DNA of 63,077 nt, the filler included, from Craspedostauros australis (lineage: Eukaryota), in assembly GCA_030167865.1 (NCBI GenBank). It is 7 parts of 7 records of this genome, joined end to end, with 100 filler letters (N's around TTAATTAATTAA, not from the genome) between each part and the next. Parts side by side here need not be neighbours in the genome. Positions count along the whole stretch, not along the records: positions 1 to 13,360 come from JALAGF010003058.1; 6 more parts are not named here. One strand, written 5' to 3'. The notes beneath the pieces are model-generated. The model searched no databases, was not told the origin of the DNA, and worked only from the letters and a program-made list of their open reading frames with translations. A program made the translations under genes and the position numbers. Below are positions 1 through 44,151 of this stretch, piece by piece (the stretch's first letter is position 1; each line of letters begins with the position of its first letter).

Positions 1-3000
1 CCTTGGCAAGCACAACGCGGCACGACATCATCTGCGCCGCAGACGCACGAACAGGCAACAGGGTGTAAAAGTCAAAAATGGAGCCGCGAATCTGGGTTTT
101 GCATAAATCAGGATGATTGTGCAAACAACTGACAGGAAGAATGCTCAAAGATGGCAAATTTTCAGTTTGGTTTTTGACTTTTGAACTGCTGATTATGGAA
201 GAAACTGTTGTTGCCTTATCATGGGAAATGCAAAATTACCGTCTTTCCCCCCCCCCCAGAGCCGGTACGACATCGAAGAACGAAGAAGGTGGAAAGCTTT
301 TGTCGAGGAGCAACATCGCGCGCAACCTCTCTTGCCAAAAAAGTGAAGGCCTTTCTCGACCAAACGGTCTGTTGCGTTGCGTGTCGGTACACGCACGATC
401 CTGTGTCTTGTGCCTCCATGCAACATTCAGGCGTGGCTGGTTTGCCCCAAAGACGGTCACGACCTCCCCTCGCCACCCGCACACACCATGGTCCAACACA
501 TCCTCGTGCTATCACTATGTTACGTTCCGTCAATGTTGTGACACTTCTCGGGTCACTTCTGGGTGGGCCATGACCCCCCAACAGTCCACAAACCTATTCC
601 AGGGAACGCAACAGAAGCCTCCGTGCGAGCAGTGCCAAAAGGAGTCAAACCGCCTCCCTCTTTCTGATGTCTGCCAGAAAGTATCATTCGTGGGCGTTGG
701 TTGTTCCATTTGCGCCGTCCATTGTGGCAATCACATTTCTCGGCGCCATAGATGTTGCCATGGAGGAAAAAGGCGCAGCACAAACACCCTCTCCGCCGCA
801 TGCCACACGTGGAGGTCGTACCAGCTCGAGCATAGCGCTTGGATTCGTGCTGGCACATCGATCCGGGCTCCACTCTGCTTCACGCGTCCTCTCTGCCATA
901 CGATCTATTGATACACCCGGTACCGGTGCGAGCCACAGAGACTCGCGTGGTTGTGAATCCCGACACAGACCGAACATTCGATCGGTCTATTCAGCTCTCC
1001 GGGCCTCCTTCAATCCACGTCACAGAGAGAATGACTCTGCTCTGCACTACAAACATACGGAAGGATGGTCATCAAGGCGGAGCGGAACACAGGAAACCGA
1101 GACTGGAACTGCACTGGAATGCCAGCTGGACGAAGGCTGGCCAACCGGCCTCCCGCAAGTATTGCATGTAGCTCGTTGTCTAGCTCGTTGTCTAGCTCGC
1201 ATGGTATTGGATGGTGCAAGCTACGAAATATGCGTTGTGCTGGTGCACGGCCTGAAGAAACACAAAGGCCACGACGCATTTCCATTACAACTCTAGCTTG
1301 TATAGTCGCATCATTTGCTTGGATACTCCAAGGAGTGGGACGAGAGTGCTCCCTTGTGGGCATTGTACGAGCTATGGTGTCAGTCACAAGCTGTCGCATC
1401 CAAGCAGAGATCGGCGACGTTGCCATACAGATACCGTGGGCGTCTTCTGCATCCACCAGCCGCGGCTGAGGTGGAGGGACACACAAGAAAGTAAAGACGA
1501 TTGATCGTTGACGGTACTGCGAGTGGGATCGTGGAAGCGAAGGAGGTACAAACGTCGAGCCTGGTACACAAAGGCACGGGCAGATAGATAGACGGAGAGG
1601 CAGAGCTTTTGGGAAAGAAAGCCGGAGTATGCGTCCGTCCTCTCCTTTCACTTTCTCCAAGCACCTCCAAACACGAGAGATAAAGAGATAGTTTCGGCAC
1701 ATGGAAGCTAACTGCTCGTAGAATATAACGCAGCGGCCAGTCTACCACAGACGAGTACGTACAAGTATGTACAGCATCGCAAAGAACATTCCGGGAGAGC
1801 TATTGATTCCAGCGACCTTCCCCCGGTGAGATTCATTTTCGCGCAACGCACCCATGCTCTTTGGTACGAGCCTCGGGTGCATTGATGGGTTGGATCTCAA
1901 TGCCTCCATCATACCCATGTTATACCGTGCTCTCTGCTTCGTCAACTCGTCGCTATTTGTTCCCTGGTGGTGGATCAATAGATCGTACTCTCGCGCAGTC
2001 GCAACCGCAATCGCAGTCCCAGGCACGAGTACGAGTGGAGAGACAGAGTTGTTCCTTGGCCTTTTTGGGCCGGCCATTTCTTCAAATCCAAAGACGCCAA
2101 CTCCGAAAGGGCGAAAAATCATCGTGGCCTGCGCTGTGGGATTCATTCGGCTCTTTGCGAAGAACAGGGCTGGCGGCACGTGCCATCGTCTCTCTGGCTT
2201 GACATTCGAACCATGACTCAGCCCCCCTCATGTCCAGCACTCGGCGATTGCCACAAGAGCCGGGGCAAAGGGCTTTTCGTTAGTCTCTGCACGGGAATCC
2301 ATTCGACGCCTGTGAATAATCGTAGATGTCCAAGAATGGTCAGGGCGTGAGATGCTCCTACAAATAACCCAATGCAATGCGGAGCGCACAAGACAGCATC
2401 GCGCGATGTTCGGCTTGTGACCCAACTGGTGGGCGCCACTGCCATTGCGATGTGCTGGCGATTCGTGGACGGCAGGCAATGTTTCGGTCTTTCCCGATGC
2501 CTCTCTGTTGATTCACATCCGTGCTGTCGTGCCTCCCAAGGAGCGGCCACCGGCATCGCTCCTTCGCTCCTTCTCATTGCCTCGTCGCTCTGTCTCGTTT
2601 TCTCATGTTCTTCGACACAACATCCAAAATCACAACAAAGAGAACGAGAAAGGCAGCGCCAGTCATTTCTTTCTGATTCCCAAACACGACAGCAACTTCA
2701 GTCATTCAGTCGTGGTTCTGTTCAAATGGTCCGACTAGTCGATGCTACGCCTTCGCCTTCGCTGCGAAATGGGCCGTGCACGACGACACACACAAACACG
2801 ATCACAGAGAAACACGGTCACCATTCTGTTGTTGCACAACCCTGTTGGACGATGGCCATCGAACGCAGTGGTCAGAAATGAGAGGCGACATCGGCAGCGC
2901 CATGATGGAACAGCTGAGGAGGAACCCACATCTGTTCACCATCTTCCTCGTACCGCATCCCTTCACACCATGAGCATACCTATGATGCACAGCGGGACAA

Positions 3001-3829
3001 GACGATGCGGCATCAGCATCCATGAGGCATCAACATCCATGAGGACCAACAGTTGCAGTAGCAAAGTGCCCAGGCTGATGCTCTGATCGGCATTCGATGC
3101 GATCGTAACGAATGGAGTTGATGGGAGATGACGGTGTCAGACCATGGTGCTGGACTGCCAGGTCAATGCGCTTCCGTGGAAAGGCACACACACACATGTG
3201 CACATCGCGTCAGCATCACGCACTGCGGTGACAGGCTTCGAGAATCGCAGCCTCCTGCACGCGGTGACCACTGCAAGGCAGCAAGGCAACGAGGTATCTG
3301 AAACAAATGCTGGCGACAACACATGAAACCGTGCTTCATAGCAACAATTGCATTGATCCACCGGACCAACAGGTGCGGCACAAACTCAGCTGGTGTGAAC
3401 GAAGCCATGGTACATCATCGCCCAACGGTCACAAACGACCACAAACGAAGTTGATGCCAGCGCCACTGCCAGGCTGGGAATCAGATGGGATGAAGAAGGG
3501 CTGAACGTGGCAAGCATGTCAAAAGACATACTGACGTAGACCATGATGGTTGGTAGAACAACAAGGCATTGCCGGAGGAGGCTACGGACGTTGGCACACC
3601 ATTTCAGACGCCGCGGAACTTCCATTCTTTCCACATCGGCGACATGCGTTGGTTCTCTGTGCACGGACTGATTCAATGTGCTGCGAACGAACATGAGGCA
3701 AGCACTTCCAAGTAGAGTTTGGAGTCGAGCACTCTGGAGGCATCCAACGACTAGCAGCAATAGATACGGCACAGCATTTCAGACCAACTCTTATACCATA
3801 TAATAGAATAGAACATTATATATTATACC

Positions 3830-5746
3830 TTACCGTTGCCGTTTTGTCTTTGTCTCTATCTCGCCTTCCACAGACACGTCGGGACTGCAGTTCAGCCGAT
3901 CCCTCTTCGCGGTGGGATGGTGAGCCAGCCCCAATTCAGGCAAAGCCAAGATCTTCGCATCATAGGTTGCCTTCTGCGCACATTCCAATGCCATATGGTC
4001 AGCTTTGTTTCGCACATGACCATCAATCTCTTCCAACATCATCAGATACTCGAACACCTCCACCAGACCATACTTGACTGCACGGTGAAGGACCGTGTCT
4101 CCGTCATTGTTCATCATGTTCACATCCACCTTCACGTTGCTTGATTCAATCAGCAGCTTTAACTTCTCCAGATAGTCATCACGGTCGTTGGCGTTGCTTC
4201 CGACATCACTTCCGGTATCGCTTCCGGTACCAGTGTTGACATAGCAGATGCAATGCAACGGAGTATTACCATCACTATTCTGAAGCGTTGCGTCTACTGA
4301 GCCATGTCCCACCAACTGCTGAAGGGTGGGCATTTCACTCTCCTTGCTCATGCATGCAAGATGGAGAAGCGTGTTGCCAGCACGATTCTGGATGTTTGCA
4401 ATTGGTTTGGCCTCTTCTATCAATCGTTTGGTGATGACTGTATCTCCCACACGATCGTTGAGGTGTGAGAGATCGCTGAGATTGGTGGTGGGGATGAGTT
4501 GGTGTTGGATGAATTCGAAGAGATGGGTGAGTCTGGTGGTATGATCCAACGGAACGAAACGACCTCTGCGGAAGGCGAGGTGCACAGGTGTGTCACCGTC
4601 ATGGTTCTGGATGTTGAAGCTGCCGTTGGTCTTGGACGATTGGAGCAAGTATTCAATGGCGTCGCGTTCCTGACGCTTGCATGCAACATGGAGAGGTGTG
4701 TTCCCGTGCCTGTTTTGAATCTTGAATATTTCATCGATACTCAACTCGCTGTTGCTGTTGTCTTCGTTGTTGTCATTGTTGGGTTGGTACTCTTCCAGCA
4801 ACAGCTTCAAGCAAGGTAAGAAGCGACGGTTACCGTAATAGCAAAGGCGATGCAATGGTGTGTCACCGTCATTGTTTTGGGTGCGGATGTGGTTGTCTGT
4901 GTCGATTTTGCCGCAATGGACCAGATACACAATCATATCCTCAGAACCACGCAGGCGTGTGCAACAAGCCCGGTGGAGAAGTGTATCACCGTGGTTGTTG
5001 CGAATGTTGAGATTGACACTGTCACTGATATCATCTGATTCCACCAGGTATCGAACGCAGCTGATCTCCATCTCCCGACATGCTGCATGCAAAGGCGTGT
5101 CACCTTTGTTGTTCTGCTTGTTGATGTTGACAGCGGCATCAACTTGGGGACATTGCACCAAGTACTTCAGCACATCGATGTGTCCTTGTTCGCAGGCATG
5201 GTGGAGTAAGCTGTTGCCATCAGTATCATCCATGATGAAGTGGATTCGATCAGATTCCATCAAGTACTCAACAAGATCTCTCTTTCCGCTCCTGCAAGCG
5301 AGATGGAGCAATGTCTGCCCTTTGTTGTTTCGGGTGTTGACATCCACATCGCTTCGATCAGATTGCATGAAGTACTCAATGGTATCTCTGTCTCCACGCT
5401 TGGACGCAATGTGCATTGACGTATTGCCGCCCCAGTCTCGAATGTTGAAATCTACGTCAACGCGGTCAGATTCCATCAGGTACTTCACGATAGCTGTGCG
5501 TCCATTACGACAAACACGATGGATTGCTGTCATTCCAAAGCGATCCTGGAGGTTGACATCCACCTTGATTCGATCAGACTCCACCAAGTACTTCACAATG
5601 GCCATGTTTCCACGAATGGAAGCACGATGGAGTGGTGTATCTCTAACTTCGTGCACAATACCACAAAGCGTGCCCTCCTCGCATGATTCGACCAAGGCCT
5701 GCACCGATGCCAAGTCGTTCCTATTACATGCTTTGAGCAATCGCAT
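3830..5746 (-). CDS. Ankyrin-repeat protein (multiple divergent repeats, no other recognisable domain)
   Basis: 638-aa ORF with many G[DN]TPLHxAC...VKYL...DVN motifs. Confidence 0.9.
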   Translation of the reverse strand: MRLLKACNRNDLASVQALVESCEEGTLCGIVHEVRDTPLHRASIRGNMAIVKYLVESDRIKVDVNLQDRFGMTAIHRVCRNGRTAIVKYLMESDRVDVDFNIRDWGGNTSMHIASKRGDRDTIEYFMQSDRSDVDVNTRNNKGQTLLHLACRSGKRDLVEYLMESDRIHFIMDDTDGNSLLHHACEQGHIDVLKYLVQCPQVDAAVNINKQNNKGDTPLHAACREMEISCVRYLVESDDISDSVNLNIRNNHGDTLLHRACCTRLRGSEDMIVYLVHCGKIDTDNHIRTQNNDGDTPLHRLCYYGNRRFLPCLKLLLEEYQPNNDNNEDNSNSELSIDEIFKIQNRHGNTPLHVACKRQERDAIEYLLQSSKTNGSFNIQNHDGDTPVHLAFRRGRFVPLDHTTRLTHLFEFIQHQLIPTTNLSDLSHLNDRVGDTVITKRLIEEAKPIANIQNRAGNTLLHLACMSKESEMPTLQQLVGHGSVDATLQNSDGNTPLHCICYVNTGTGSDTGSDVGSNANDRDDYLEKLKLLIESSNVKVDVNMMNNDGDTVLHRAVKYGLVEVFEYLMMLEEIDGHVRNKADHMALECAQKATYDAKILALPELGLAHHPTAKRDRLNCSPDVSVEGEIETKTKRQR

Positions 5747-7013
5747 AAGCCATCTGTCATTGGGGTCATCACTGTTTCCATTCCAGTTTCATTTTGATTG
5801 CATCGTAGAATAGAGAATGTGCCCCAGCGGATACATTCAGAGTTGGATGGAAGAGAGAGGAAGAGAGGGTGGATTGCATCAACATGAGTGTATGGCAAGT
5901 AGAAGCAGATGGCAGTGCCATGTGCACTCAGCCTGTGGGTACACATGTACAAGTACGAATGCACACGGGCGCGATCAAGAGGCAGGGGAACATATGATAG
6001 TACTGGTTCTCAGACAGGAAGGTAGACGTCAAGTCGTTCATGCAAGGGAGGTTACCACCATCCCCGCAACCACGCAGCTACCACGTATTCATGTGTTGGC
6101 ACATGCACGCATCCACTTCGGTAGACCCCAGCACAAGGGCAAGCGCCAGTACCAGTAGTGCACTCACATGCGCATGCACTGGCGTGAAAGCCAGTCGCTC
6201 TGTGAGTCGAAAGATCGTGGGAAGGAGCTATCCATGCTGCGAAGATGGCGATCCGTACTCGCAACGATCTGTTCTTTGTTGTTGAGTTGAGGTTTGGACA
6301 GCTGCGACTGTGCGATGTACAAGTATGGGTATCGAGAAGGTCGAGTCCTCTCTCTTCGTATGCATGTATTGTACGGTTTTATATGAACTATTGTAGATGC
6401 TCTGCCAGGATGAATGGTTTGGACTTGGTGACAGGTCCAGGTGGAATCAATGTAAATGGTTTGTGGTGTGCGGATCTGTTGATGTCGATGTCGATGTTGC
6501 AACTGTTTGTGTTGTGTTGTGTTCTGTCAGAGATGTGCGTGTTTGTGATAGATCTTTGTGTTGGCCATTTCCGTGTTTGGATTCCGATTTGTTCGCATAC
6601 CTCTAGCTTGACTGCGACTAGTGTGTTGTCAACGAAAGGATGGTTCTCATTCCTTGTTCTTCCACATGGATCACGCCCACGTTCCGTCAACTTTGGTGGT
6701 CCTGCCAGTCATGGATACCCTTGTCTCAACATGTCCAGATCGGGACCTCTTCCTCTGTTCCACTTCGTCTCATTTCGTTTCATTTCGTTTCGTTTGTACC
6801 CAACACTCCACACCACTCAGACCTGGACACGACGATGATCTGCATTCCACGTTGACAGTCCTCCTCGATGAGCCATGTGTGACATGAGTCCCTGCTCGTA
6901 CCATGCCAAGAGGCACCATGAGATACCGTACAACATCCAACCATTCAACCATTCAACCAATCATCCAACACCCATCCAGCAACCTCTCAACAGCTATTGA
7001 CCACCATCTCAAC

Positions 7014-7420
7014 ATGCCAGATGTCTCAAACAAGCAACTCTTCCCTGCTGCCAGCACTGGTGATCTGACAGCGATGAAGAAATCGAAGAAGCAGAATGAA
7101 AGAGGCGATATCAACAAGGCGACAAGCAGCCAGGGTTGCACTCTGCTTCATTACACATGTGCACATAGAAAGTGACAATGAGGATGGTTGCTGAAGACAC
7201 ACATTCTTTGTTTACCCACAGAGACTCCAGCAAGTTGTGTTGGAAGCCTCAGCTGATGGGAGATGTCCATGCCCTCTGTCATGGTGGAACAATGAACAAC
7301 AGATTTGATGACGAGCGCAGTGCAATGCCCATGATGGAGTTGTACAAGGTTCTGGATGAAGAGGAGGGTACTGGGAAAGTTGATTTGTATAATACATTCA
7401 TCGTGGCATGTTGGTGATCT
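7014..7420 (+). pseudogene. Internally deleted, decayed ankyrin-BTB paralog
   Basis: MPDVSNKQLFPAASTGDL...QNERGDINK matches the N-terminus of 9336-11513, then jumps directly to the C-terminal MRMVAE...PQLMGDVHA...SAMPMMELYKVLDEEEGTGKVD. Contains a stop and frameshift. Confidence 0.85.
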
Positions 7421-9335
7421 TTGTGCACTTCACCATATCATCTTGTGGACAGCTGATACCGGTGCCAAGAATGGGAAAGAGGAGCAAAGTGGGACACTGC
7501 AGAAGCAGCCATGGGAAGCCAATGTGCCATGGAATTGAATGCTCCAGACGACTGGCTCAGTCATCACGAAGTAGCTCCAGAGGCAAGCGATTGACTCGTG
7601 ATCAGAATTCCATTCGTTGGAGTGATGGTGATGGCGCAAAGTGGAAATGGCGATCAGCCCACTGCTGTGTCACACATTCCAAGTCACTCATTGGCTCAAC
7701 ACTTCCACACACATGCAGGGAAACAACGATGGCAAGTGTGCATGTGCTATTGAAGGTGGTGCAGGTGATGCACTTCATCATACAACCGCTAGCTCACACT
7801 TCATGATTTGGTTTGGTTGTGGATAGTGAGACAGGATGGATGTGGCTGCGAGTGAGCAAGGAGCTTGGAATATCAACAGCATTGAACCTCAGTTGGAGTT
7901 GCTATTGACACTTTCATCGTCATTGAATTGTTGGGTCCTTGTGGTATGCAAGCATTCACCCGATTGTTTGAACCAGCCATGGGGCAGCTGGTGAGCCGAC
8001 GAGCAAAGAAAGAGCCATGCACCTTGGTAATTGCACTTTGGTCATGCTTGATGCAACTGAAGCATGTTTTTGCAATACCCAGAGGATTTCCAACACTTGT
8101 GTCCTCATCACTGCATCTAACAATACTCTGAATGATCACTTGATGAAGCTTGTGAATGTTGTGATGACATCTGACTTGACATGTGTGGGTGGCTCTTGAT
8201 CTGGATTTGGTGCACAATTGGGATCAAGCTGAGTGAGAAGAGAGAACAAGAGATGGCATGCAAGCAGGATAGCAACCAAGGGGATGTCATGTGATGCCAA
8301 TTGAAGTGTGTCAATGATGTGATAATGTATGTGCTGACAGCAAAACCAAGCTTACCTGGCTCTACTCCTCCACCACCTTGGCTTGCTGCTGTTGGAGTGT
8401 GCGAGGCTTGCTTTGGTCCAACCAATTGGTTGGATTTGCGGATACTCTGGTGTTCAAAGCAGTGTATTTTGTGTGCAATGTATTGGTACCATATGATGCA
8501 TTGGCATCAAGCCATTGTTTTTCACATCTCAGGACCAATCCACCTCAGGGTGTGTGTGTCTTGAGCAATGCTCCAGCTTGACGACTTGGCCAATGGCATC
8601 ATTGGATCAAAGATGTGCAGCATTGGCATCAACACGGAGACATCACACAGATCTCCAGCATGATGCGTGATCTGGCCTCAGCTCTGCCATCTGTAAGCTT
8701 CACGTTTCCGCACAAGACATGCATCCTCCACCCGAACTTGTTCAGATGGGGTAATTGAAGCACCAGCGATCGCGCTCGTCATCTGGATGGTGTTTGCAGA
8801 AGGAAGTGTGCTTGGGCGGGTGTTGCTATTGTGGTAGTCGGAGATCATGGTGTGTGAGGTGTTCTGTGGAAAGTGTACGACTGGGAAACGAGTGTGACGG
8901 AAAAAGTATCATGGCGACCAAGTCGCTCGCACCAACAGTCACGTCGTTGGACGCACACCCTGCGATCCGACACAGCTTGGCACAAACAGGGAAGCTTCTG
9001 TCGAATGACTCAATGGACTCAAGATCATCGAGTTCGATCGCACACATTCCTTCTTCGTGTTTCTTTCGTGTTTCTTTCGTGTTGTTTGTGTGTGTGTGTG
9101 TTTTGTGGTGGATGTCGAGAAGGATCCGCACCAACCAGTTCTTCCACGACAAACAAGAGTGCGATCATGGAACAGAGAAACAGAACGTGCGAACAAGACA
9201 ACGACAACCTTGCTATTCCTTGCAACAGTTTGGTCTCATACCATCAGTCAGCATCTTCATCATAAGACCGTGAACACATTGATCAATCATCCAGCAATTG
9301 TTTGTCTACCAACAGCTCAACAACCAACGACCAAC

Positions 9336-11513
9336 ATGCCAAATGTCTCAGACGAACAACTCATTGATGCTGCTATTGCAGGTGATCTGTCGGTGTTGAG
9401 GGAATGGAAGGAGCAGAATGAAGGACGTGATGTCAACACGGTCAAAGACGGCTGTGGTCACACTCCCCTTCATTGGGCATGTCGCAACGGGCGCTTGGAG
9501 TGTGCCAAGTACCTCATCGAATCAACCAACGCCGATGTCAACTGCAAAGACAACTATGGCTACACTCCACTTCATCGAGCATGCGGCAAAGGCAGCCTGG
9601 AATGTGTGAAGTACCTCATCGAATCAGCCAACGCCAATGTCAACTGCAAAGACGACTATGGCAACACTCCACTTCATGAGGCATGCATCAACGGCAGCCT
9701 GGAATGTGTGAAGTACCTCATCGAATCAGCCAACGCCAATGTCAACTGCAAGAACAAAGGTGGCAACACTCTACTTCATAAGGCATGCATCAACGGCCGT
9801 TATGAATGCGTCGAGTACCTCATCGAATCAGCCAACGCCAATGTCAACTGCAAGAACGACGATGGCTACACTCCACTTCATGAGGCATGCTTTGGAGGCA
9901 GCCTGGAATGTGTGAAGTACCTCATCGAATCAACCAACGCCGATGTCAACTGCAAGAACAAATTTGGCAACACTCCACTTCATACGGCATGCGCCAACGG
10001 CCACCTGGAATGTGTGAAGTACCTCATCGAAACATGCAACGCCGATGTCAACTGCAAAGGCTACAATGGCTACACTCCACTTCATGGGGCATGCTCCCAC
10101 GGCCACCTGGAATGTGTGAAGTACCTCATCGAAACATGCAACGCCGATGTCAACTGCAAGAACAACGATGGCGACACTCCACTTCATACGGCATGCAATA
10201 GAGGCCACCTGGAGTGTGTCAAGTACCTCATCGAAACATGCAACGCCGATGTCAACTGCAAGAACAACGATGGCGACACTCCACTTCATTGGGCATGCAA
10301 TAGAGGCCACCTGGAGTGTGTCAAGTACCTCATCGAAACATGCAACGCCGATGTCAACTGCAAAGCCAACAATGGCAACACTCCACTTCATAAGGCATGC
10401 TACTGGGGCCAGTCTAAATGCGTCAAGTACCTCGTCGAATCAACCAAGGTCAATATCGACATCCAAAACAACGACAACAAAACACCTGTCAAATTAATCA
10501 AAGCGGAAGATCAGGTCAAGATGATGAGATCAATCATGAAGCGTCTCGATCATCTCAGTCAACGCAACTTGCAACTGCAGACACAGCTGCAAACAGAGAC
10601 GCAGGTGCACAAGCAAAGCCACACAAACACCATCACAACACCAACCAAGCACGACAATCCTAAAATCCACACAACAACCAACATCAGCATCGACCAAGAT
10701 CGTCGCAGCGCTGTTCGTTCTGAGGCCAAGGCAGACATCACCTTCCTGTGCGGACAAGGCGACGAACAACAGNCAATCAAAGCAAACTCCGGAGTCCTCA
10801 TGGTCACTGTTCCGTCCATTCAGACATTGATCGACTCGGGAATCCAACATCAGCATGTTGATGACGGCACTGATGACAACACTGATTCTGCCAATGCCCC
10901 ACCCCGCAGGCTCATCCCTCTTCCCAACCATCAACCCAAATACGTCCAACGTGTCCTCGAATGCATCTACACAGGTGAGATATCCTTCGATCACAGCGCT
11001 CCGGACAACGATACTGATACCCGCGATGGCGTTCATGACGATGATGATGGCGCTGACCAGCCAACTCCCACCCTCGATGGACAGGACGATCTACAACAGC
11101 TGATCCTTGTTGCCAACGAGTTCGGCTTCTGGCGACTCAAGCTTGTTCTTGAAGCAAAGTTGGTCCACACTCATCTCACAGAGGACACCATGATACATGC
11201 GTTGATATTCGCTGATCAACACAACTGCGTGGTGTTGAAGGATGCAGCAATGAGAATGGCAGCTCGAAACATGCAGACTTTACTCGCTCGTGAAGATTGC
11301 AGCAAGTTGTTTCAACACCCTCAACTGCCGGGAGAGATCCATGCCATCTTCAGTGGGAGAGCAGTAAGCAATGAAGTTGATGACGAGTACAGTGCCATGT
11401 CCATGATGGATTTGTACAAGGTCGTGGATGAAAACGAGGGTACAGCACAAGTGGATTCATACATGGATCGTGCAACGTTGATGAACTTCGTGCGGTCCGT
11501 CACACCTGGCTGA
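9336..11513 (+). CDS. Ankyrin-repeat (10 x 34 aa) - coiled coil - BTB/BACK (SPOP-like) protein; putative Cullin-3 substrate adaptor
   Basis: ATG at 9336 (MPNVSDEQ). Repeats GxTPLHxACxxGxLECVKYLIExxNADVNCKxxx. BTB-like ADITFLCG...IKANSGVL...VLECIYTG...LILVANEFGFWRLK and BACK-like ALIFADQHNCVVLKDAAM. Confidence 0.88.
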   Translation: MPNVSDEQLIDAAIAGDLSVLREWKEQNEGRDVNTVKDGCGHTPLHWACRNGRLECAKYLIESTNADVNCKDNYGYTPLHRACGKGSLECVKYLIESANANVNCKDDYGNTPLHEACINGSLECVKYLIESANANVNCKNKGGNTLLHKACINGRYECVEYLIESANANVNCKNDDGYTPLHEACFGGSLECVKYLIESTNADVNCKNKFGNTPLHTACANGHLECVKYLIETCNADVNCKGYNGYTPLHGACSHGHLECVKYLIETCNADVNCKNNDGDTPLHTACNRGHLECVKYLIETCNADVNCKNNDGDTPLHWACNRGHLECVKYLIETCNADVNCKANNGNTPLHKACYWGQSKCVKYLVESTKVNIDIQNNDNKTPVKLIKAEDQVKMMRSIMKRLDHLSQRNLQLQTQLQTETQVHKQSHTNTITTPTKHDNPKIHTTTNISIDQDRRSAVRSEAKADITFLCGQGDEQQXIKANSGVLMVTVPSIQTLIDSGIQHQHVDDGTDDNTDSANAPPRRLIPLPNHQPKYVQRVLECIYTGEISFDHSAPDNDTDTRDGVHDDDDGADQPTPTLDGQDDLQQLILVANEFGFWRLKLVLEAKLVHTHLTEDTMIHALIFADQHNCVVLKDAAMRMAARNMQTLLAREDCSKLFQHPQLPGEIHAIFSGRAVSNEVDDEYSAMSMMDLYKVVDENEGTAQVDSYMDRATLMNFVRSVTPG
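9456..10475 (+). repeat. Tandem array of ten 102-bp ankyrin-coding units
   Basis: cactccacttcat / aagtacctcatcgaa / aacgccRatgtcaactgcaa recur at 102-bp spacing (e.g. 9558, 9660, 9762). Confidence 0.95.
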
Positions 11514-12103
11514 GGCCGATGGCGCTGCTGCTGAAGAAGAGGAGTGAATCACAACAACAGTAGACAGAGAAGTGAGCGTGTCATGAAGAAGAGGAAAATG
11601 AATAGGCTGTAATCAGAGAAGCAACTACACTACCGCATTTCGTAAGATAGCTATCAGTGATACATCCAATGGTGCGCCCGGCACGTCTTGGATCTCGCCT
11701 TTGGTGACTCGCGCAGCGCGCTGTTCTATACACGACCGTATCATTTGCAGCACAGCCTGACTGGCTGGACAGCAAGGCATGCTCTTTGGCCAATACATTT
11801 CTGATGATCATGCCGCTGCATTGCAGATGATCCTGGTTGGTGAACAGCACGTTGGTGTACCATACAGCATCATTGGGCAGTGTGGCATGACGACGATGGT
11901 CTGGCCACCNNNNNNNNCGCCGAGATCGTCGTCGCCAATCAAATGCTTTCCGCGTTCGTTGGTTTCAATGATGTGGAAGGAGTTGTGCGGAAGGAATTGT
12001 GTGGAAAAGCAAGGTGGTATCCGCTGGTGTCATGCATGGATCGTCGTACCCCACTGCAACTTGACAGGGCGGGATGTATGTATCGCGACTGTCGGCTTGT
12101 GGG

Positions 12104-12319
12104 TGTCAAGCAACCATGAACCATGAACCTTCGGTCGTTGCTTTTCAGTTTGAGGCGCTCGTGGGTGCACCTCCTGCGAACCTGATAATACACTCAGCAT
12201 AACATACTACTACCAATGCAATGATCACTCTATTTGGTTGGCAGAGGAGATAGAGGCAAGGAGTGTTGGCATACGTACGCAGGACAGACGTCCGCAGCCT
12301 CCGCCTCTGAAGAGTGACA
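12104..12319 (+). mobile_element. Putative 5' LTR (TGTCA...TGACA)
   Basis: Begins exactly where similarity to arm B stops, has perfect 5-bp inverted termini, and is followed by a gag-like ORF. TSD cannot be checked because of the gap. Confidence 0.5.
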
Positions 12320-12543
12320 ACGGAGACAGTCTCCTCCCATAAATCCATCATTAGCACACACACACACACANNNNNNNNNNNNNNNNNNNNNNNNNNNNNN
12401 NNNNNNNNNNNNNNNNNNGCTATTGTGATCACATCCTCTCCTTTCTTCGTGCTCTTCGTTTCAGGACGTTTCATTCCCTGGCCTCGAGCTGTATGCCCTC
12501 TCGTCACCCTCTCTTCGCTCCGCACTTCGTTCCGCTCTCTACC

Positions 12544-13360
12544 ATGGCCCCCGCTGATGACACCTCTCCGCCCACGGCGACGGTGACAACTGCTCAAACC
12601 ATTTCGCTTCGCCTTGGATGGAAATGGTTTCCGGCCGCCATGGAGGGGCTGCAGGTGCGCTCCGACGACGAACTCTACGACCTATTCTACGCGCCCGATG
12701 ACGGCTTTCACGAGTGCCTCTGCGCGTGGTCTGCAACGAGCCCACTTCATGTGCGGCACCTGTGGCGCCTTCGCGCGTGGTATTTGAAAACCGGCGAGGC
12801 TGACGACCAGTGGGCATCCAACCTCTCGGCGCGCGAGTTCCGCCCTTTCATGCGCCTCGAGAATCCGATCCCTCCCGCCTTCCGCTCCGTCCCCATGTCG
12901 GTGGCCTCTGTCGCTTCGCGTGCTGGTAACACAGGTCTACGCGCGGACGACGAGGTCGTGGACATATCCAAGGTGGCCGATCCTGCTGCGACCGTGCCGC
13001 CTGAAGGTGGTCCTCCTCCTCGCGACGGCGACACACCTGGCGATGGTGCGGCTTCTACTGCTCCTGCTGTGGACTCGCATACTCTCCCGCCTGCTGACTT
13101 CGAGGGTCCTCGTCGTGAGACCGCGGATTTCGACTACGTCACCGACTCTGGCGTGGACTACTCTGTGGCCAACGCCAGCCCCGCGTTCCGTCGGCACCGT
13201 ACCTATGAGGTCCCACCCGCTCTCGAGCGTCTGGACTACGGTGTCGGCCCGGCTTGGGACAAGTGGCGTCTTCCCCTGAAGGACGACTCGCCAGCCGCCG
13301 TGTTCAACTGGTACGGCCAGTTCCAGGCTGCTGCGGCGCGCGCAGACTTACACTTTTGCC
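12544..13360 (+). mobile_element. Probable LTR-retrotransposon gag N-terminal fragment (runs into gap)
   Basis: GC-rich open frame downstream of the LTR candidate, truncated by an assembly gap; no catalytic motif visible. Confidence 0.45.
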
Positions 13361-36744: not shown

Positions 36745-38577
36745 NNNNNNNNNNNNNNNNNNNNNNNNNNNNNNNNNNNNNNNNNNNNTTAATTAATTAA
36801 NNNNNNNNNNNNNNNNNNNNNNNNNNNNNNNNNNNNNNNNNNNNACAGGGTTGTTTTTGGCATCCCTACACGTTCACGTCTACATTCACGGCAACAGCAA
36901 CACTTGCGAATACTCCACAGCATAATATGATATAATACAATGGAGCACAGTGACTCATCCTATGGCATGAGAAGTATACTATACTCTCCACAATATAATA
37001 GGATGTACATAATGCTTATCTTAACAATCCACAAATGACAACATGACAACCCTGAATGGGGTCACACAAGGAAAATGGTCGTGGAGAGAAATGGTGATGC
37101 ATGGAAGGAATCAATGGATTGACGGGCACTGATTTAGTCTTGGGGGCAGATTTTTATACGGGACTGACGTTAGTGACTTGAAATCGGGGTGAACGAGGCT
37201 GACCAGTTATGAAATTATGACCCTTACAACCACCTCCACTATGGCAATACATGTCCTCGTTCTGTGCAAGAGATCATGGTTGTACTTGCATAGAACTACG
37301 TGCATTGATGGAGGTGTCAGCCAACGTATCATACACAGACATGACCAGTAAAGCAATGCATGGGGGAACCAAGCAGCCACGCACAACGTCGCATGGCAAA
37401 AAGGATGGACAAAGGCGACCATGGCAAGAGATGGAGATGGAGACGATGATGACGACGAATGGGAAGTGGTGATGAGGAGCGATCGCAAACGTATCGCATC
37501 GATCGGTGACATCAGAAAGGAAGATATCAAGGCAATTTCATAGGTAAACAATCACATGAACAATCGCAGCACCAACAACGGTGCCATCAACAGTGGCAAA
37601 CGACGCCATGGTTCCGGGATAAGCCCTGGATTTGAGTGATCAGCAACAACGCCCACGCTGGATGCGCCGTCGGCAGCTGAGACTCAATACCTGCTGGACG
37701 AGTGCATTCATGAGATCGGACGCAACAACTTCTTCGGGACCTGTAGCACCAGCTGTTCGGAGATACTCCTTCTATTACGCCACCACTGAACGCATCATTG
37801 CCTCCAACGCCCACTCATGCTGAAGCTCAAAGCGATGCATTGCAGCCATAACTGCAAACGATGAGATGGAGGCACGGTGTCATCGGATCCACAAATTGGA
37901 GAAATGATCTGCCAAGGAATCAGCAACTTTTCCCATGGCTCGTCATCCTTGCCAGCCGCATTGGGGCCCATGTGGCAGCTGGCGTGCGCTTGCGCCTTGC
38001 GTGATACCATCCAAAAACGGCGGCAGCAACACCAACGAGCCGACAGTCGCGATACATACATCCTGCCCCGTCCAGTTGCAGTGGAGTACAACGATCCATG
38101 CATGATGCCAGCGGATACCACCATCCGTTCCCGCACAATTCCTTCTGCACAACCCCTTCCACATCATCGAAATCAACAAACGCGGAAAGCACTTGATTGA
38201 CCACGGCGACAGCAGCGGTGGCCAGATCATCGTCTTCATACCGCACTGCCCAACGATGCTGGATGGTACACCAACGTGCTGTTCACCAACCAGGATTATC
38301 TGCAACGCAGCGGCATGATCATCAGCAATGCATTGGCCAAAGAGCATACCTTGCGGCCCAGACAGCCAGGCTGTGCTGCGAACGATACGGTCGTGCGCAG
38401 AACAGCACACTGCGCGAGTCACCAAAGGCGAAATCCAAGACGTGCCGGGCGCACCATTGGACGTATCACTAATGGCTAGCTTACGAAATACGGTAGTGTA
38501 GTTACTTCTCTGATTACAGCCTATTCATTTCCTCAACTTCATGACACGCTCACTTCTCTGTCTACTGTTGTTGTGAT

Positions 38578-40095
38578 TCACTCCTCTTCTCCAGCAGCAG
38601 CGCCATCGGCCTCAGCCACCCTGGAAGGTGTGACGGACCGCACGAGGTTCACCAACGTTGCGCGATCCATGTATGAATCCACTTGCGCAGGACCCTCGTT
38701 TTCATCCACGATCTTGTACAAATCCATCATGGACATGGCACTGTACTTGTCATCAACTTCATTGCTTGCTACTCTCCCACTGCAGACGGCATGGATCTCT
38801 CCCATCAGTTGGGGATGTGGAATCAGCTTGCTGCAATCTTCACGAGCGAGTAAAGTCTTCATATTCGCAGCTGCCAGCCTCATTGCTGCATCCTTCAACA
38901 CCACGCAGTTGTGTTGATCAGCGAATATCAACGCATCTACCATAGTGTCCTCTGTGAGATGAGTGCGGGCCAACTCTGCTTCAAGAACAAGCTTGAGTCG
39001 CCAGAAGCCGAACTCGTTGGCCACAAGGATCAGCTGTTGTAGATCGTCCTGTCCATCGATGGTGGGAGTTGGCTGGTCAGCGCCATCATCATCGTCATGA
39101 GCGCCATCGCGGGTATCAGTATCGTTGTCCGGAGCGCTGCGATCGAAGGATATCTCACCTGTGTAGATGCATTCGAGGACACGTTGGACATGTTTGGCTT
39201 GAAGGTTGGGAAGAGGGATGAGCCTGCAGGGTGGGGCAGTGGCAGAATCAGTGCCGTCATCAGTGCCGTCCTCGACGTGCTGATGTTGGATTCCCGAGTC
39301 GATCAATGTCTGAATGGACGGAACAGTGACCATGAGGAGTCCGGAGTTTGCCTTGATTGGCTGTTGTTCGTCGCCTTGTCCGCACAGGAAGGTGATGTCT
39401 GCCTTGGTCTCAGAAGGAACAGCGCTGCGGCGATCTTGGTCGATGCTGATGTTGGTTGTTGTGTGGATTTTCGGATTGCTGTGCTTGGTTGGTGTTGTGA
39501 TGGTGTTTGTGTGGCTTTGCTTGTGCGCCTGCATCTTTGTTTGCAGCTGCGTCTGCAGTTGCAAGTTGCGTTGACTGAGATGACGGAGACGCGTCATGAT
39601 TGATCTCATGATTGATCTCATCATCTGGGCCTGATTGTGCGCTTCGATTACACCGACGGGTGTTTTGTTGTCGTTGTTTTGGATGTCGATATTGACCTTG
39701 CATGTTTCAATCAGGTACTTGACACACTCCAGGTGGCCTCCATGGCATGCTATATGAAGAGGAGTGTCGCCATGGTTGTTCTTGTAGTTGACATCGGCGT
39801 TGGTTGATTCAACAAGGTACCTGACCAACTGCGGATGGCCTCCATAGCATGCACGGTGAAGGGGAGTGTCGTCATCGTTGTTTTTGCGGTTGACATCGGC
39901 GTTGGTTGAGTCGATGAGGTACTTGACAAACTCCAAGCGCCCGTTGGCGCATGCCATATGAAGGAGAGTACGACCAAAGTTGTCTGTGGCCGTGTTGACA
40001 TCACGTCCTTCGTTCTGCTCCTTCCATTCCTTCAACACTGACAGATCACCTGCAGAAGCAGCATGAAGGAGTTGTTCGTCTGAGACATTTGACAT
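38578..40095 (-). CDS. Ankyrin-repeat (3 x 34 aa) - BTB/BACK protein, paralog of 9336-11513
   Basis: MSNVSDEQ start at 40095; BTB/BACK half nearly identical to the arm A copy; only three full repeats. Confidence 0.88.
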   Translation of the reverse strand: MSNVSDEQLLHAASAGDLSVLKEWKEQNEGRDVNTATDNFGRTLLHMACANGRLEFVKYLIDSTNADVNRKNNDDDTPLHRACYGGHPQLVRYLVESTNADVNYKNNHGDTPLHIACHGGHLECVKYLIETCKVNIDIQNNDNKTPVGVIEAHNQAQMMRSIMRSIMTRLRHLSQRNLQLQTQLQTKMQAHKQSHTNTITTPTKHSNPKIHTTTNISIDQDRRSAVPSETKADITFLCGQGDEQQPIKANSGLLMVTVPSIQTLIDSGIQHQHVEDGTDDGTDSATAPPCRLIPLPNLQAKHVQRVLECIYTGEISFDRSAPDNDTDTRDGAHDDDDGADQPTPTIDGQDDLQQLILVANEFGFWRLKLVLEAELARTHLTEDTMVDALIFADQHNCVVLKDAAMRLAAANMKTLLAREDCSKLIPHPQLMGEIHAVCSGRVASNEVDDKYSAMSMMDLYKIVDENEGPAQVDSYMDRATLVNLVRSVTPSRVAEADGAAAGEEE

Positions 40096-41989
40096 GTTGG
40101 TCGTTGGTCGTTGGTTGCTGAGCTGTTGGGAGAACAAACAATTGCTGGATGATTGCTCAATGTGTTCACGGTGCGAGTGGGTCTTATGATGACGATGCTG
40201 ACTGATGGTATGAGACCAAACTGCTGCAAGGAATAGCAAGGTTGTCGTTGTCTTGTTCGCACGTTCTGTTTCTCTGTTCCATGATCGCACTCTGGTTTGC
40301 TGTAAGATCTTTCTCGACATCGACCACAAACACACACACACAAACAACACGAAAGAAACACGAAAGAAACACGAAGAAGGAATTCATGCGATCGAACTCG
40401 GTTTTCTGTAGTCCATTGAGTCATTCGACAGAAGCTTCCCTGTTTGTGCCAAACTGTGCCGGATCGCAGGGCGTGCCTCCAACGGCGTGACTGTTGGGGC
40501 GAGCGACTTGGTCGCCATGACAGCTTTTCCATCACGCTCGTTTCCCCAGTCGTACACTTCCCACAGAACACCACACAAACACCATGATCTCCGACTACCA
40601 CAATAGCAATACCTGTCCTGGCACACCTCCTTCTGCAAATGCTGTCAAGATGATGAGCGCGGTCGCTGGTGCTTCAATTCCCCATCTGAACAAGTTCGGG
40701 TGGAGGATGCATGCCTTGTGCGAAAACGTGAAGCTTACGGATGGCAGAGCTGAGACTGGATCACGCAACGTGCTGGAGATGTGCGCGATGTCTCCGCGTT
40801 GATGCCAATGCTGCACATCTTTGATCCAATGATGCCTTTGGCCAAGTTGTTAAGCTGGAGCATTGCTCAAGACATGCACCCTGAGGTGAATTGGTCCTGA
40901 GATGCAAAAAACAATGGCTTGGCACCGATACATCATATGGTACCAATACATTGTGCCTGAAACGTATTGCTTTGAACACCTGAGTATTCGCAAATCCAAC
41001 CAATTGGTTGGACTGAAGCAAGCCTTGCACACTACAACAGCAGCAATCCAAGACAGTGGAGGAGTAGAGCCAGGTAAGCATGGTTTTGCTGTCAGCACAT
41101 ACATGATCACATCAGTGACACACTTCAATTGGCATCGCATGACATCCCCTTGGTTGCTCTCCTGCTTGCACACTGTCTCTTGTTCTCTCTTATTGCTCAC
41201 CTCGATCCCAATCGCGCACCAAATCCAGATCAAATGCCACCCACACCTGTCAAGTCAGATGTCATCGCAGCATTCACAAGCTCCATCAAGTGATCATTCA
41301 GAGTATCGTTAGACGCAGTGATGAGAGCACAAGTGTTGGAACTCCTCCGGGTATCGCAAAGGTGCCCTTCAGTTGCATCAAGCTTGACCAAAGCGCAATT
41401 GGTAAGGTGCATGGCATTTTCTTCACTCGTCGGGTCACCAGCTGCCCCACGGCTAGTCCGAACAATTGGGTGAACGCTCACATATTGCAAGGACCCAACA
41501 ATGCGATGACAACAAAAGCGCCAATAGTGACTCTGGCTGAGGTTCGATGCCGCTGATATTCCAAGCTTCTTGCTCACTCACAGTCACATCCATCCCATCT
41601 CGCTATCCACAACTGAACCAAATCATGAAGTGCAAGCTAGCAGTTGTATGATGGAGTGAATCACCTGCACAGCCTTCTATACCACATGCACACTTGCCAT
41701 GGTCTTTTCACTGCATGTGCATGGAAGTGTTGAGCCAATAAGTGACTTGGAATGTGCAACACAGCAGTGGACTGATTGCCATTTCCACTTTGCGCCATCA
41801 CCATTGCTCTAACGAAAGTAACTCTGATCACAAGTCAATCGCTTGCCACTGGGGCTACTTTGTGATGACTAAGCTAGTTGTCTGGAGTACTCAATTCCAT
41901 GGCACATTGCCTTCCATGGCTGCTGCTACAGTGTTCCGCTTTGCTCCTCTTTCACTTTCTTGACACCAGTCTCAGCTGTCCACAGGATG

Positions 41990-42409
41990 TGTTGGTGTAG
42001 TGCACAAAGTCCGCCAATGTGCCATGATGAATGTACAAATCAACTTTCCCAGTGCCCTTGTCTTCATCCATGACCTTGCACAACTCCATCATGGACATTG
42101 CAATGCACACATCATCAAATCTGTTGCTCATTGTTCCACCACAAAAGAGGGCATGAACGCCTCCCATCAGCTGAGGCTTCCGACACAACTTGCTGGAATC
42201 TCTGTGGGTAAACAACAAATGTGTGTCTTCAGCAACCATCCTCATTGTTGCTTGCCGTGCACACGTGTGGAATGAAGTGGAGTGCAACCCTGGCTGCTTT
42301 TCATCTTGTTGATATCATCTCTTTCATTCTGCTTCTTCCCTTTCTTCATTGCCAACAGATCGCCTGTGCTGACAGCAGCGAAGAGTTGCTTGTTTGCGAC
42401 ATCTGGCAT
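41990..42409 (-). pseudogene. Internally deleted ankyrin-BTB pseudogene (copy of 7014-7420)
   Basis: MPDVANKQLFAAVSTGDL...GCTPLH, then a frameshift to MRMVAEDTH...AMSMMELCKVMDEDKGTGKVD. Confidence 0.85.
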
Positions 42410-42430
42410 GTTGAGATGATGGTCGATAGC

Positions 42431-43137
42431 AGTTAGGATTCGTGTACTTTCGTAGACGAACCGGAGTAGGCCGTGTGGACTGCCGGCTTCAAACGAGGCC
42501 AATTCACGCAATTCACTGGGCTTGAGTGTTGTATGACCGTCAAGGCTTGTAACGATGAATAGAGTAGTAGTGTTTGTACTAATCCGAACATGTATAATAT
42601 GAGTTAGTAGTTGTAGGCAGGGTGAAGAAACGATGTTCTGGTATTGACACGGCTCTGCACTGACCCTCATGGTTCAGTGCTGAGAAGAGACTGTACTTTC
42701 CTCTGTGTCCTCCTCCCTTGGATCGCTGGCGATGTCATGCAGTGGGTCTTGTGGCTTCAGCGGATGTTGAAGGGATGGGAGCTGCACAGCCGGAGCCAGC
42801 AGATTGAACATCCGTCAGGATTCCATTGCTGAGGTTGAAGCAGCTTAGATTGCTCACGATATAGCTGGCATGGCCGGATGGCGTCGTGGCAGCAAAAGGG
42901 AATCCAGGTGAGGTCCATCTGACAGGATCTGAGGAGCATATAGTTCCCACATGCATTGGTAGGCTTTAGACGGACCGTAGCATGAGAATCGGGAATGATT
43001 CGTGACTGAAAAGAAGGGAGGGCAAGGAAGGTCTGTCCATTGTCGGGTTTGGACAATTGCCCGCCAAAAGCAATTTCAAGCGACAACACGGGATACCCTA
43101 AAAAGGAAAGTAGTCGGTTCTTAGTTGAACTTCAACT
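42431..43137. mobile_element. Solo LTR, 707 bp, AGTT...AACT termini, 5-bp TSD ATAGC
   Basis: ATAGC at 42426-42430 and 43138-43142. The empty site (cagctattgacc) is present in arm A at ~6991-7002. Confidence 0.8.
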
Positions 43138-44151
43138 ATAGCTGTCGAGGGGTTGCCAGGTGGGTGTTGGATGATTGGTTGAATGGTTGAATGGTTGGAT
43201 GTTGTATGGTATCACATGGTGCCTCTTGGCATTGTGTGCAGATGCCGATCATATGTGTCAATTCCACCCATGCAATTGTGCACCTTGAGTTTGTACCATG
43301 CCTTTGTAGAATACGACTGTTCCTGCAGTTCGAGCTACGATGTGACACTGTCTCAATTCCCTGGTTGCCTCGCTGCCCCTCTCTTTCTCTGGTTTCCCCA
43401 CCTTACTTCCTCTCTCTTTCTGTCTCTTTGTTTCTCTGTTGAGTTCGGTCCTTGTCCTTGATCCCTTCATGTTCATCCCTTCATCATGTCCTACGATCTA
43501 TGATATTCTATAATATTATATTATATTATAAAAGTGTTATAGAATACAATGGATAATAAAAACTATCCAATGTGTCTGCGAGCCACAGGCGCCAGAGCAC
43601 GTTGTCAACTACCATCCCGCTCCACGTCGTGTGTGCGTATCCGTTGCGCAACAACTCCTCACGGGTTAGCGGGAACGAGTCGTGGTGGGGGTCATTTGTG
43701 CTTCCACCAGCGCCGGTGAAGAATAAGGGTCTTGCTGGTTAGCATGTTTTCACAACCCGTGCTGCGCGATCGATTGTGAAGGAAAGCGAAACGTGATCGG
43801 CATTTGTGAATGACCACCGTTTCCGTCTCCCCACAACAGTCACAAAAGTCCACCCCGCCCAGCGAAAACGAAAACCCCTCACATCACTGTGCAGCGCGTA
43901 GTGTGGAGTACGTACGTGTATTCGTACCATCTATTCCGCAAGACACCGCAACTGCGCTTCGGCAACCGTGTGAGCAAACGACCAAATACCCTTCCTCAGA
44001 CCGTTCACAAAACCTGTCCACAACATTGGGAAGAGGAATTCAACAAAGACAACACACAAATCAGGACACACATCGGGACACACACATCAGGACACACACC
44101 GCAACCATCACGCCAATCCACATCGCCGCTCACCAATTTCCAATTACCAAC

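Follow-up and report, generated by a model that had tools for sequence, protein, structure and literature searches.

A hypervariable ankyrin array on a BTB adaptor-like module in the diatom Craspedostauros australis, a candidate target-catcher for protein tagging

Introduction

What does a protein bind when almost every repeat of its putative binding domain differs at the same few codons, and what becomes of the partner once it is bound? The question is raised by gene A, an intronless open reading frame (ORF) at 9336..11513 (+) in a 63,077-nucleotide stretch of the genome of the diatom Craspedostauros australis (assembly GCA_030167865.1). This stretch, hereafter the window, joins seven parts of seven records end to end with 100 filler letters between neighbouring parts; positions count along the whole of it, and positions 1 to 13,360 come from JALAGF010003058.1. 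Gene A combines a hypervariable ankyrin (ANK) array with a BTB adaptor-like module, and may therefore be an adjustable target-catcher for protein tagging. How diatoms recognize viruses, parasites and other non-self inside the cell is little understood, and the locus offers a concrete, testable candidate: its putative binding face is legible in the sequence, paralogs differ in their number of repeat units, and the other end of the protein resembles a ubiquitin-ligase adaptor.

Ten ankyrin units share a framework and differ at seven codons

Tandem Repeats Finder reports a repeat at 9460-10447 with a period of 102, 9.7 copies, 85% matches and 0% indels, and reading in frame resolves it into ten units of 102 bp, or 34 amino acids, at 9444-10463 (+). 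In Pfam, Ank_2 reaches 535 bits and Ank matches ten stretches, with the N-terminal 376 residues of the protein assigned to ankyrin. Hidden Markov model (HMM) matches to Ank and a predicted solenoid of helix pairs together place gene A among ankyrin repeat proteins. The strings CACTCCACTTCAT and AAGTACCTCATCGAA each occur in eight copies, and GCATGC and GTCAACTGCAA each in nine, at a spacing of 102 or 204. When up to two mismatches are allowed, AAGTACCTCATCGAA has 13 matches in the window (ten of them inside the array) against 0.15 expected from shuffles.

Counting from an invariant Lys as codon 1, the hypervariable codons of each unit are 2, 3, 4, 6, 11, 14 and 15, and each shows 4-8 different residues among the ten units. 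The residue lists that a preliminary description of this DNA had given for the sites after PLH, after AC, in the hairpin triplet and after G were all four reproduced exactly from the in-frame units. The same description held the framework to be conserved even at synonymous sites. This is true of units 2, 3 and 5 and of units 6-9, which are near-identical, and does not extend to the array as a whole, where the mean pairwise synonymous difference over the 27 framework codons is 0.189. A tree of the framework accordingly separates two young subgroups (units 2, 3 and 5; units 6-9) from units 1, 4 and 10, which are older, and within the young subgroups the framework differs by only 0-3 of 81 nt. 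Leu at positions 9, 18 and 24 is encoded by CTT, CTG and CTC, respectively, each constant across units; the same codon across units, with different synonymous codons between positions, is better explained by identity by descent than by a preference for certain codons. Mean nucleotide identity among units is 0.81, and mean amino-acid identity is 0.68 for all ten and 0.73 for units 1-9 (range 0.47-0.97).

The hypervariable codons depart sharply from this uniformity. Where the frameworks of two units are only 0-3 differences apart, 8-13 of the 21 hypervariable nucleotides are changed, the exception being units 8 and 9 with two. Units 2 and 3, for instance, have eight differences in the 21 hypervariable nucleotides and none in the 81 of the framework, units 6 and 7 have 11 and one, and units 8 and 9 have two, both in codon 11, and none. 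Units 8 and 9 (10158-10361) thus differ only in codon 11, which reads Thr ACG in one and Trp TGG in the other; TGG is also codon 11 of unit 1. Either this selected codon was hit twice, or conversion over a very short tract is involved.

The variable codons map to the hairpin and first helix of the modeled repeat

Our next question was where the hypervariable positions would lie in a folded array. The AlphaFold2 model of residues 1-400, built from the single sequence, has a predicted local distance difference test score (pLDDT) of 78.5 and regular helix pairs, every unit having its helix 1 at positions 8-14/15 and its helix 2 at 18-28. When this model was submitted to Foldseek, Espin1-AR was matched with a TMt of 0.93 and a root-mean-square deviation of 1.8, and structures of designed ankyrin repeat proteins (DARPins) were among the best matches at 36-40% identity. 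Read from the helix assignments of the model rather than from its coordinates, positions 2-4 and 6 are predicted to fall in the hairpin ahead of helix 1, and positions 11, 14 and 15 (i, i+3, i+4) on one face of this first, inner helix; helix 2 would hold none of the seven. The clustering in hairpin and first helix proposed earlier is therefore what the model predicts for all seven sites. Excerpts of two papers describe the inner helices and hairpins as the concave binding face of ankyrin domains (PMC4986451, PMC8229355), and one of them places the randomized positions of DARPins on that face (PMC8229355).

Replacements at these positions exceed the silent rate

Replacement at the hairpin and inner-helix positions outpaces both the silent rate of the units and the rate of the flanking DNA. 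By a tree-free count of minimum changes, the seven hypervariable codons require at least 32 replacements and no silent change, while the 27 other codons require 19 replacements and 10 silent changes (Fisher test, 2e-4). For the tests that follow, the sites were partitioned a priori rather than chosen from the data, using the six DARPin library positions. These are reportedly 2, 3, 5, 13, 14 and 33 (Binz et al. 2003), corresponding to unit positions 3, 4, 6, 14, 15 and 1 here. Of the six, five belong to the seven positions that vary most (hypergeometric 4e-4). The sixth, position 33, is the invariant Lys of the array, and variation extends to the equivalents of DARPin positions 1 and 10.

Codon likelihoods were computed with our own Goldman-Yang-type code, with branch lengths common to the site classes, on the ten units or on these plus the three units of the paralog described below, using two trees each (four runs). 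The replacement-to-silent rate ratio omega at the a-priori positions was 3.0-6.3, with 2dlnL against omega = 1 of 17.7-35.9. The likelihood-ratio test (LRT) of M2a against M1a gave 39.5-62.6 over the four runs, and a posterior above 0.95 was reached by positions 4, 11 and 14 in all four, by position 15 in three, by position 3 in two and by positions 2 and 6 in one. Because the units recombine, and recombination can mislead site tests, we simulated an extreme case: 19 data sets were generated under the fitted M1a (omega <=1), tip labels were reshuffled at every codon, and trees were re-inferred. The largest M2a/M1a LRT among them was 8.25, and one of the 19 exceeded 5.99.

Two simpler contrasts are less informative. 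A comparison of replacement with silent changes within codons is marginal for the a-priori sites (24:1 vs 27:9, p 0.037), and the pairwise Nei-Gojobori (NG86) ratio pN/pS (DARPin positions, 0.88; seven hypervariable codons, 1.81) is unreliable with 2.6-3.3 silent sites. As NG86 is unstable in such small classes, replacement rates were set against the silent rate of all codons and against flanking DNA.

An inverted duplication supplies a paralog and a neutral yardstick

Flanking DNA is available for this comparison within the window itself. Gene A lies in segment A (6989..12106, +) of a 5.1-kb inverted segmental duplication, whose partner, segment B, occupies 38029..42434 (-). The two (6989-12106 against 42434-38029) are 85-88% identical in nucleotides, non-coding DNA and flanks included. 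Segment B carries paralog B (38578..40095, -; 505 codons), which has the architecture of gene A with only three ankyrin units. The length difference between the two genes is exactly seven units (10 vs 3), and both frames are open.

A relic of an older family member sits upstream of both gene copies. At 7014..7426 (+), the N-terminal cap and the start of unit 1 run out of frame into the C-terminal tail, and the counterpart in segment B (42003..42409, -) has the same cap/unit 1/tail junction. Its presence in both arms makes the relic older than the inverted duplication. Together with the unit difference this gives an order of events: a tandem duplication of which one copy decayed, then the inverted duplication of the segment, then the change in unit number.

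The Jukes-Cantor distance between A and B in the flanking DNA is 0.127 on the 5' side and 0.109 on the 3' side, and silent divergence (dS) outside the array is 0.095. Against these values, the replacement divergence (dN) at the hypervariable codons of the three aligned unit pairs is 0.43. The first units, A1 and B1, are positional counterparts adjoining the N-terminal cap, and between them pN is 0.097 in the framework and 0.49 at the DARPin positions, the latter to be set against 0.113 in flanking DNA (binomial 4e-4). A dN/dS above 1 at the variable sites is supported by omega of 3.0-6.3, by LRTs above the recombination nulls and, as an independent yardstick, by the A/B excess over flanking DNA. 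Lineage-specific replacements are balanced between A and B (14 vs 15, with three outgroups). Indels between the two genes are in frame, save one of 8 bp in the last codons, against 44 + 21 = 65 gap columns in the flanks. As a result of the 8-bp indel (11470-11570 on the plus strand vs 38560-38665 on the minus strand), gene A stops 14 codons before B, whose frame continues to a stop codon common to both sequences.

The C-terminal module is nearest to SPOP

The frame of gene A runs from an ATG at 9336 to a stop at 11511-11513, and the standard code gives 725 codons with no internal stop; a single N at 10773 yields one X in the protein. The order of elements is N-terminal cap, ten ankyrin units, long helix, BTB, BACK-like helices and two-helix tail, all on the plus strand. 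The capping repeat (residues 1-36, 9336..9443) has no TPLH motif, and its modeled helices span residues 6-15 and 18-27. Following the array in frame is a degenerate C-terminal half unit beginning QNNDNKTPVKLIK (10464..10502). To model the remainder, residues 381-725 were predicted with AlphaFold2 from 120 aligned sequences, giving a pLDDT of 81.9 and a predicted template modeling score (pTM) of 0.74. The model begins with a 38-residue helix (model residues 10-47, the model starting at residue 381; protein residues 390-427, 10503..10616), after which comes a low-confidence linker. It continues with a BTB fold (residues 452-613, 10689..11174), in which one loop is lengthened and an acidic, disordered insert is modeled with low confidence, then BACK-like or 3-box helices (residues 619-672, 11190..11351) and a two-helix tail (residues 690-722, 11403..11501) that is conserved among the relatives.

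The BTB assignment comes directly from the Pfam HMM, PF00651 scoring 27.9 bits against a cut-off of 20.5 over residues 464-553. Of the four outcomes that the preliminary description would have taken as refuting it, three were looked for and did not turn up: variable sites off the concave face, dN/dS <=1 at those sites, and the lack of a BTB match by HMM. In Foldseek, BTB structures were matched by the model with a probability of 1.00; the first ten ranks went to SPOP chains (E 8.7e-7), with a TMt of 0.81 for 4j8z, a SPOP BTB entry, and KEAP1, KLHL11, KBTBD4, NPR1 and vaccinia A55 came next. A profile of the close family searched against solved structures likewise returned SPOP as the best non-ankyrin match (E 2.3e-18). 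In both searches the SPOP match takes in the helices after BTB as well. Of the SPOP-type BTB/BACK module that the preliminary description had proposed, the BTB domain and the nearness to SPOP by profile and fold stand, and the BACK part is the weaker: BACK_BPM_SPOP (PF24570) stays below its cut-off, and the helices were placed by the model, Foldseek and distant relatives. A Pfam scan of the gene A protein found no MATH and no SAP match and, at E <=1, no NACHT or NB-ARC. We therefore do not file gene A as a MATH-BTB protein; by its sequence it appears to be built on the same chassis only. A homodimer prediction for residues 446-680 scored 0.00 and, having been run without controls, is evidence neither way.

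When residues 381-725 were searched against 1.84 billion representatives, 130 relatives were found at E <=1e-3, 22 at <=1e-10 and nine at <=1e-30. Among 20 close sequences, two of which are the window's own, BTB was found in all 20, ANK in nine and MATH in five; the individual architectures of 20 scanned proteins included seven ANK-BTB and eight MATH-BTB. Among 108 distant relatives, 95 had BTB, 93 BACK_BPM_SPOP (E <=0.01), 51 a C-terminal SAP domain and 49 MATH_2. It is hence fair to say, as had been proposed, that ankyrin stands in place of MATH: in the nearest relatives of the BTB module, the domain that precedes it is ANK or MATH. The named relatives are Craspedostauros australis transcripts whose annotation goes no further than 'BTB domain-containing protein' or 'MATH domain-containing protein'. 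Two scans of metagenome contigs for DNA of relatives gave nothing confirmed by tblastn.

Some features of the C-terminal ends of these proteins deserve mention. The tail of gene A occupies the place of the SAP domain in the 51 distant MATH-BTB relatives, and could be a DNA- or chromatin-binding end. Two Craspedostauros relatives, P0002 and P0003, have a C-terminus that resembles a membrane tail anchor, with basic residues after a hydrophobic stretch; this end is not present in genes A and B. The arrays of P0002 and P0003 differ from each other by a full unit.

The size of the family and the state of the assembly

The window contains 21 runs of N, many of them pairs of exactly 44 N parted by 12 bases. 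This pattern looks masked or scaffolded, and repeat-rich parts of the assembly need care. A public run (X1) offers contigs of uncertain kind that contain 0.30 of the window's words. On 9000-11700, 483 of its contigs match at >=90% identity (114 at >=99, 164 at 95-99 and 205 at 90-95), with up to 23 contigs over one BTB position and 9000-9272 uncovered, and some contig joints skip a net 102, 408, 612 or 816 bp. These contigs give a hint of a large family whose members vary in their number of units, and prove neither expression nor the assembly of this array. The "natural library" of binders put forward earlier is overstated to that extent, with two family members visible in the window and a larger family hinted at by X1.

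Comparison with known recognition systems

Is this combination of parts known from elsewhere? The closest match in fold and profile is to SPOP and the plant BPM proteins of MATH-BTB-BACK type, which share the order of recognition domain, BTB and BACK-like helices. Gene A differs from them in having a ten-unit ankyrin solenoid for MATH, a long linking helix, a longer BTB loop and an acidic insert. The plant NPR1/BOP and animal ABTB/BTBD11 proteins also have BTB and ANK in one chain. They have few, non-homogeneous repeats, and in NPR1 the BTB domain is placed first. NPR1 is indeed among the fold matches of the C-terminal model, at rank 43 (E 4.7e-4), far below SPOP; no sequence relation to ABTB proteins turned up in searches that were not aimed at ABTB. 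In the poxvirus ANK/F-box-like (PRANC) proteins, an ankyrin array is again the variable recognition part of a cullin-ligase adaptor, in this case of SCF/Cul1 and without BTB. PRANC proteins are viral and carry an F-box-like motif, whereas gene A has BTB and the scanned ORFs of the window have no viral hallmark.

Expanded MATH-BTB and F-box adaptor families with a positively selected substrate-binding part were reportedly described in nematodes and grasses by Thomas in 2006 (Genome Res 16:1017). An excerpt summarizing that work (PMC4334554) states that positive selection is present in the substrate-binding part and absent in the cullin-binding part, and raises a possible defence against foreign proteins. 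Gene A shows a like contrast, with dN of 0.43 at the hypervariable ANK sites and 0.063 in the BTB-tail region. The recognition domains of those adaptors, however, are MATH or FTH/FBA, with no tandem repeat array, and they reportedly diversify by gene birth and death, while gene A does so also by gain and loss of units within the gene.

Fungal NOD-like receptors (NLRs), according to an excerpt of Dyrka et al. 2014 (PMC4986451), carry uniform ANK, TPR or WD repeats with polymorphism in repeat number; for ANK, positive selection is placed at five sites of the concave face, where the selected positions map to hairpin and inner helices. Near-identical frameworks, a difference in repeat number (10 vs 3 between paralogs) and selection at hairpin and inner-helix sites are all found here. 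Unlike the fungal receptors, gene A has no NACHT or NB-ARC, its effector side is BTB, and its host is a diatom. Its units, at 0.68-0.73, are also less alike than the >85% amino-acid identity over >=100 amino acids by which such repeats are delimited in that excerpt. With DARPins gene A shares a rigid, consensus-like framework and diversity concentrated at hairpin and helix-1 positions. DARPins are engineered from 33-residue modules, however, and the units here have 34, with the extra residue in the loop after helix 2. Gene A thus combines two known kinds, the positively selected BTB adaptors and the hypervariable ANK arrays of fungal NLRs. In the literature on diatom ankyrin and BTB proteins and on gene-family expansion, we found no description of this ANK-BTB family.

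What the array may be for

We suggest that gene A belongs to a lineage-restricted ANK-BTB family, its nearest named relatives being diatom proteins, in which an ankyrin solenoid stands where SPOP/BPM-type relatives have MATH. The protein would receive substrates for a Cullin-3 ligase, with the ANK groove as its paratope, and duplication and loss of units together with positive selection would keep altering the partners bound. We give this reading about as much credence as doubt. An ever-changing binding face would imply that the targets are themselves fast-changing or diverse, and they could be foreign (a virus, parasite or mobile element) or endogenous (e.g. mating-related). Were the proposal to hold, a uniform scaffold with few hypervariable positions and unit shuffling would have arisen independently on a degradation adaptor, a recipe so far known from fungal NLRs and copied in DARPin engineering, and the family would be a natural source of ankyrin binders. 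Should it fail, the locus would still be a clean case of positive selection in a repeat array, with the duplicated flanks as a built-in neutral yardstick.

Several observations weigh against this proposal. The selection tests use ten plus three short units, our own code and trees that recombination can distort. BACK_BPM_SPOP reaches 19.9 bits against a cut-off of 27.4 (residues 620-658), the gene A protein alone has 0 matches to PDB sequences at E <=1, and the counterpart of the SPOP loop with the Cul3-contacting motif is lengthened and modeled with lower confidence. Constraint outside the array is weak, with an A/B dN/dS of 0.66 for the BTB-tail region and of about 1.0 for the N-terminal cap and linker; the ANK-BTB family could simply be fast-evolving or partly decaying. 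A framework synonymous difference of 0.19 means that the array is not very young, and the arrays of relatives in other diatoms are less uniform. Finally, the scaffold has many N gaps, and the number and order of units are those that the assembly gives.

As to the targets, an immune role is one possibility. In the fullest form of this idea, gene A would be part of a germline repertoire of intracellular diatom binders. Its many ANK-BTB paralogs would differ in their ankyrin paratopes, formed as units were shuffled, duplicated and lost and refined by positive selection, and through them proteins of viruses, parasites or mobile elements would reach a Cullin-3 ligase. We consider this unlikely. If true, the repertoire would be an arm of innate immunity with a SPOP-like chassis, one that has converged on the repeat arrays of fungal NLRs and the expanded MATH-BTB families of nematodes. 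A reproductive role is a serious rival. Here the family would be a fast-evolving one related to reproduction, its ANK face tracking mating- or gamete-stage partners under sexual selection or selection for compatibility, and positive selection on a binding face fits reproduction as well as it does immunity. In the diatom Seminavis robusta, BTB/POZ families have sexual-stage-biased expression and are among the genes with a high ratio of replacement to silent diversity (piN/piS), according to an excerpt of PMC7335047, whose text does not state that these families carry ANK arrays. On balance we consider this account unlikely, though it stands foremost among the rivals.

Somewhat more doubtful is a function of BTB other than Cul3-dependent degradation, as an oligomeric scaffold or as a chromatin factor with a SAP-like tail, for which the array would do the recruiting. 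Many BTB proteins do not bind Cul3, the Cul3-contact loop appears altered in the model, and the tail is conserved in the family at a place where 51 of the 108 distant relatives have SAP. Yet the gene A protein itself has no SAP match, and those proteins that it matches best in fold and profile (SPOP, KEAP1, KLHL11, KBTBD and vaccinia A55) are Cul3 adaptors without exception.

We doubt slightly more that gene A encodes an ordinary ANK-BTB protein, an adaptor or scaffold whose endogenous partners are stable, in which recent amplification of units and relaxed constraint on the surface would mimic adaptive diversification. In favour of this account, natural ankyrin repeats vary most at just these positions, the fact from which DARPin libraries were derived. 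The weak constraint outside the array (dN/dS 0.66-1.0) and the weak a-priori contrast within codons (24:1 vs 27:9, p 0.037) also speak for it. Against it, replacements at these sites exceed the silent rate of the units (omega 3-6, LRT 17.7-35.9), A1/B1 pN is 0.49 where flanking DNA has 0.113, and simulations with omega <=1 gave LRTs of <=8.25 where 39-63 were observed.

Least probable of all is an array mis-joined from several family members, or an untranscribed, decaying duplicate: the 21 N runs, units 8 and 9 only 2 nt apart, about 60 nt of identical framework between variable blocks, X1 joints with net skips of 102-816 bp and two frameshifted family relics within the duplicated segments would all suit it, but the repeat has no indels in Tandem Repeats Finder, 725 codons are open, the units are mostly distinct (mean nucleotide identity 0.81), A/B indels are in frame against 65 flank gap columns, and mis-joining would alter the order of units and would not create a site-specific excess of replacements.

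Neighboring features of the window

A viral origin of the locus was considered and dropped, as the 17 larger ORFs scanned, of 32 of at least 180 amino acids, have ordinary cellular domains and no viral hallmark. About 3.6 kb upstream of gene A, on the opposite strand, a 638-residue ORF (3830-5746, -) consists of ankyrin repeats only (Ank_2, 258.6 bits), with longer, irregular units and no BTB; it is 29-37% identical to the gene A array. Elsewhere, an ORF of 1147 amino acids (43810-47253, +) has PT disordered repeats, a DUF7640 match and an internal repeat at 45790-46154. Also in the window are two tandem genes for PLP-dependent enzymes (PALP; 47808-49337, + and 50102-51517, +), about 72% identical in DNA. 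The end of the window (61792-63000) is filled with dense internal direct repeats at many offsets, which are 74-79% identical.

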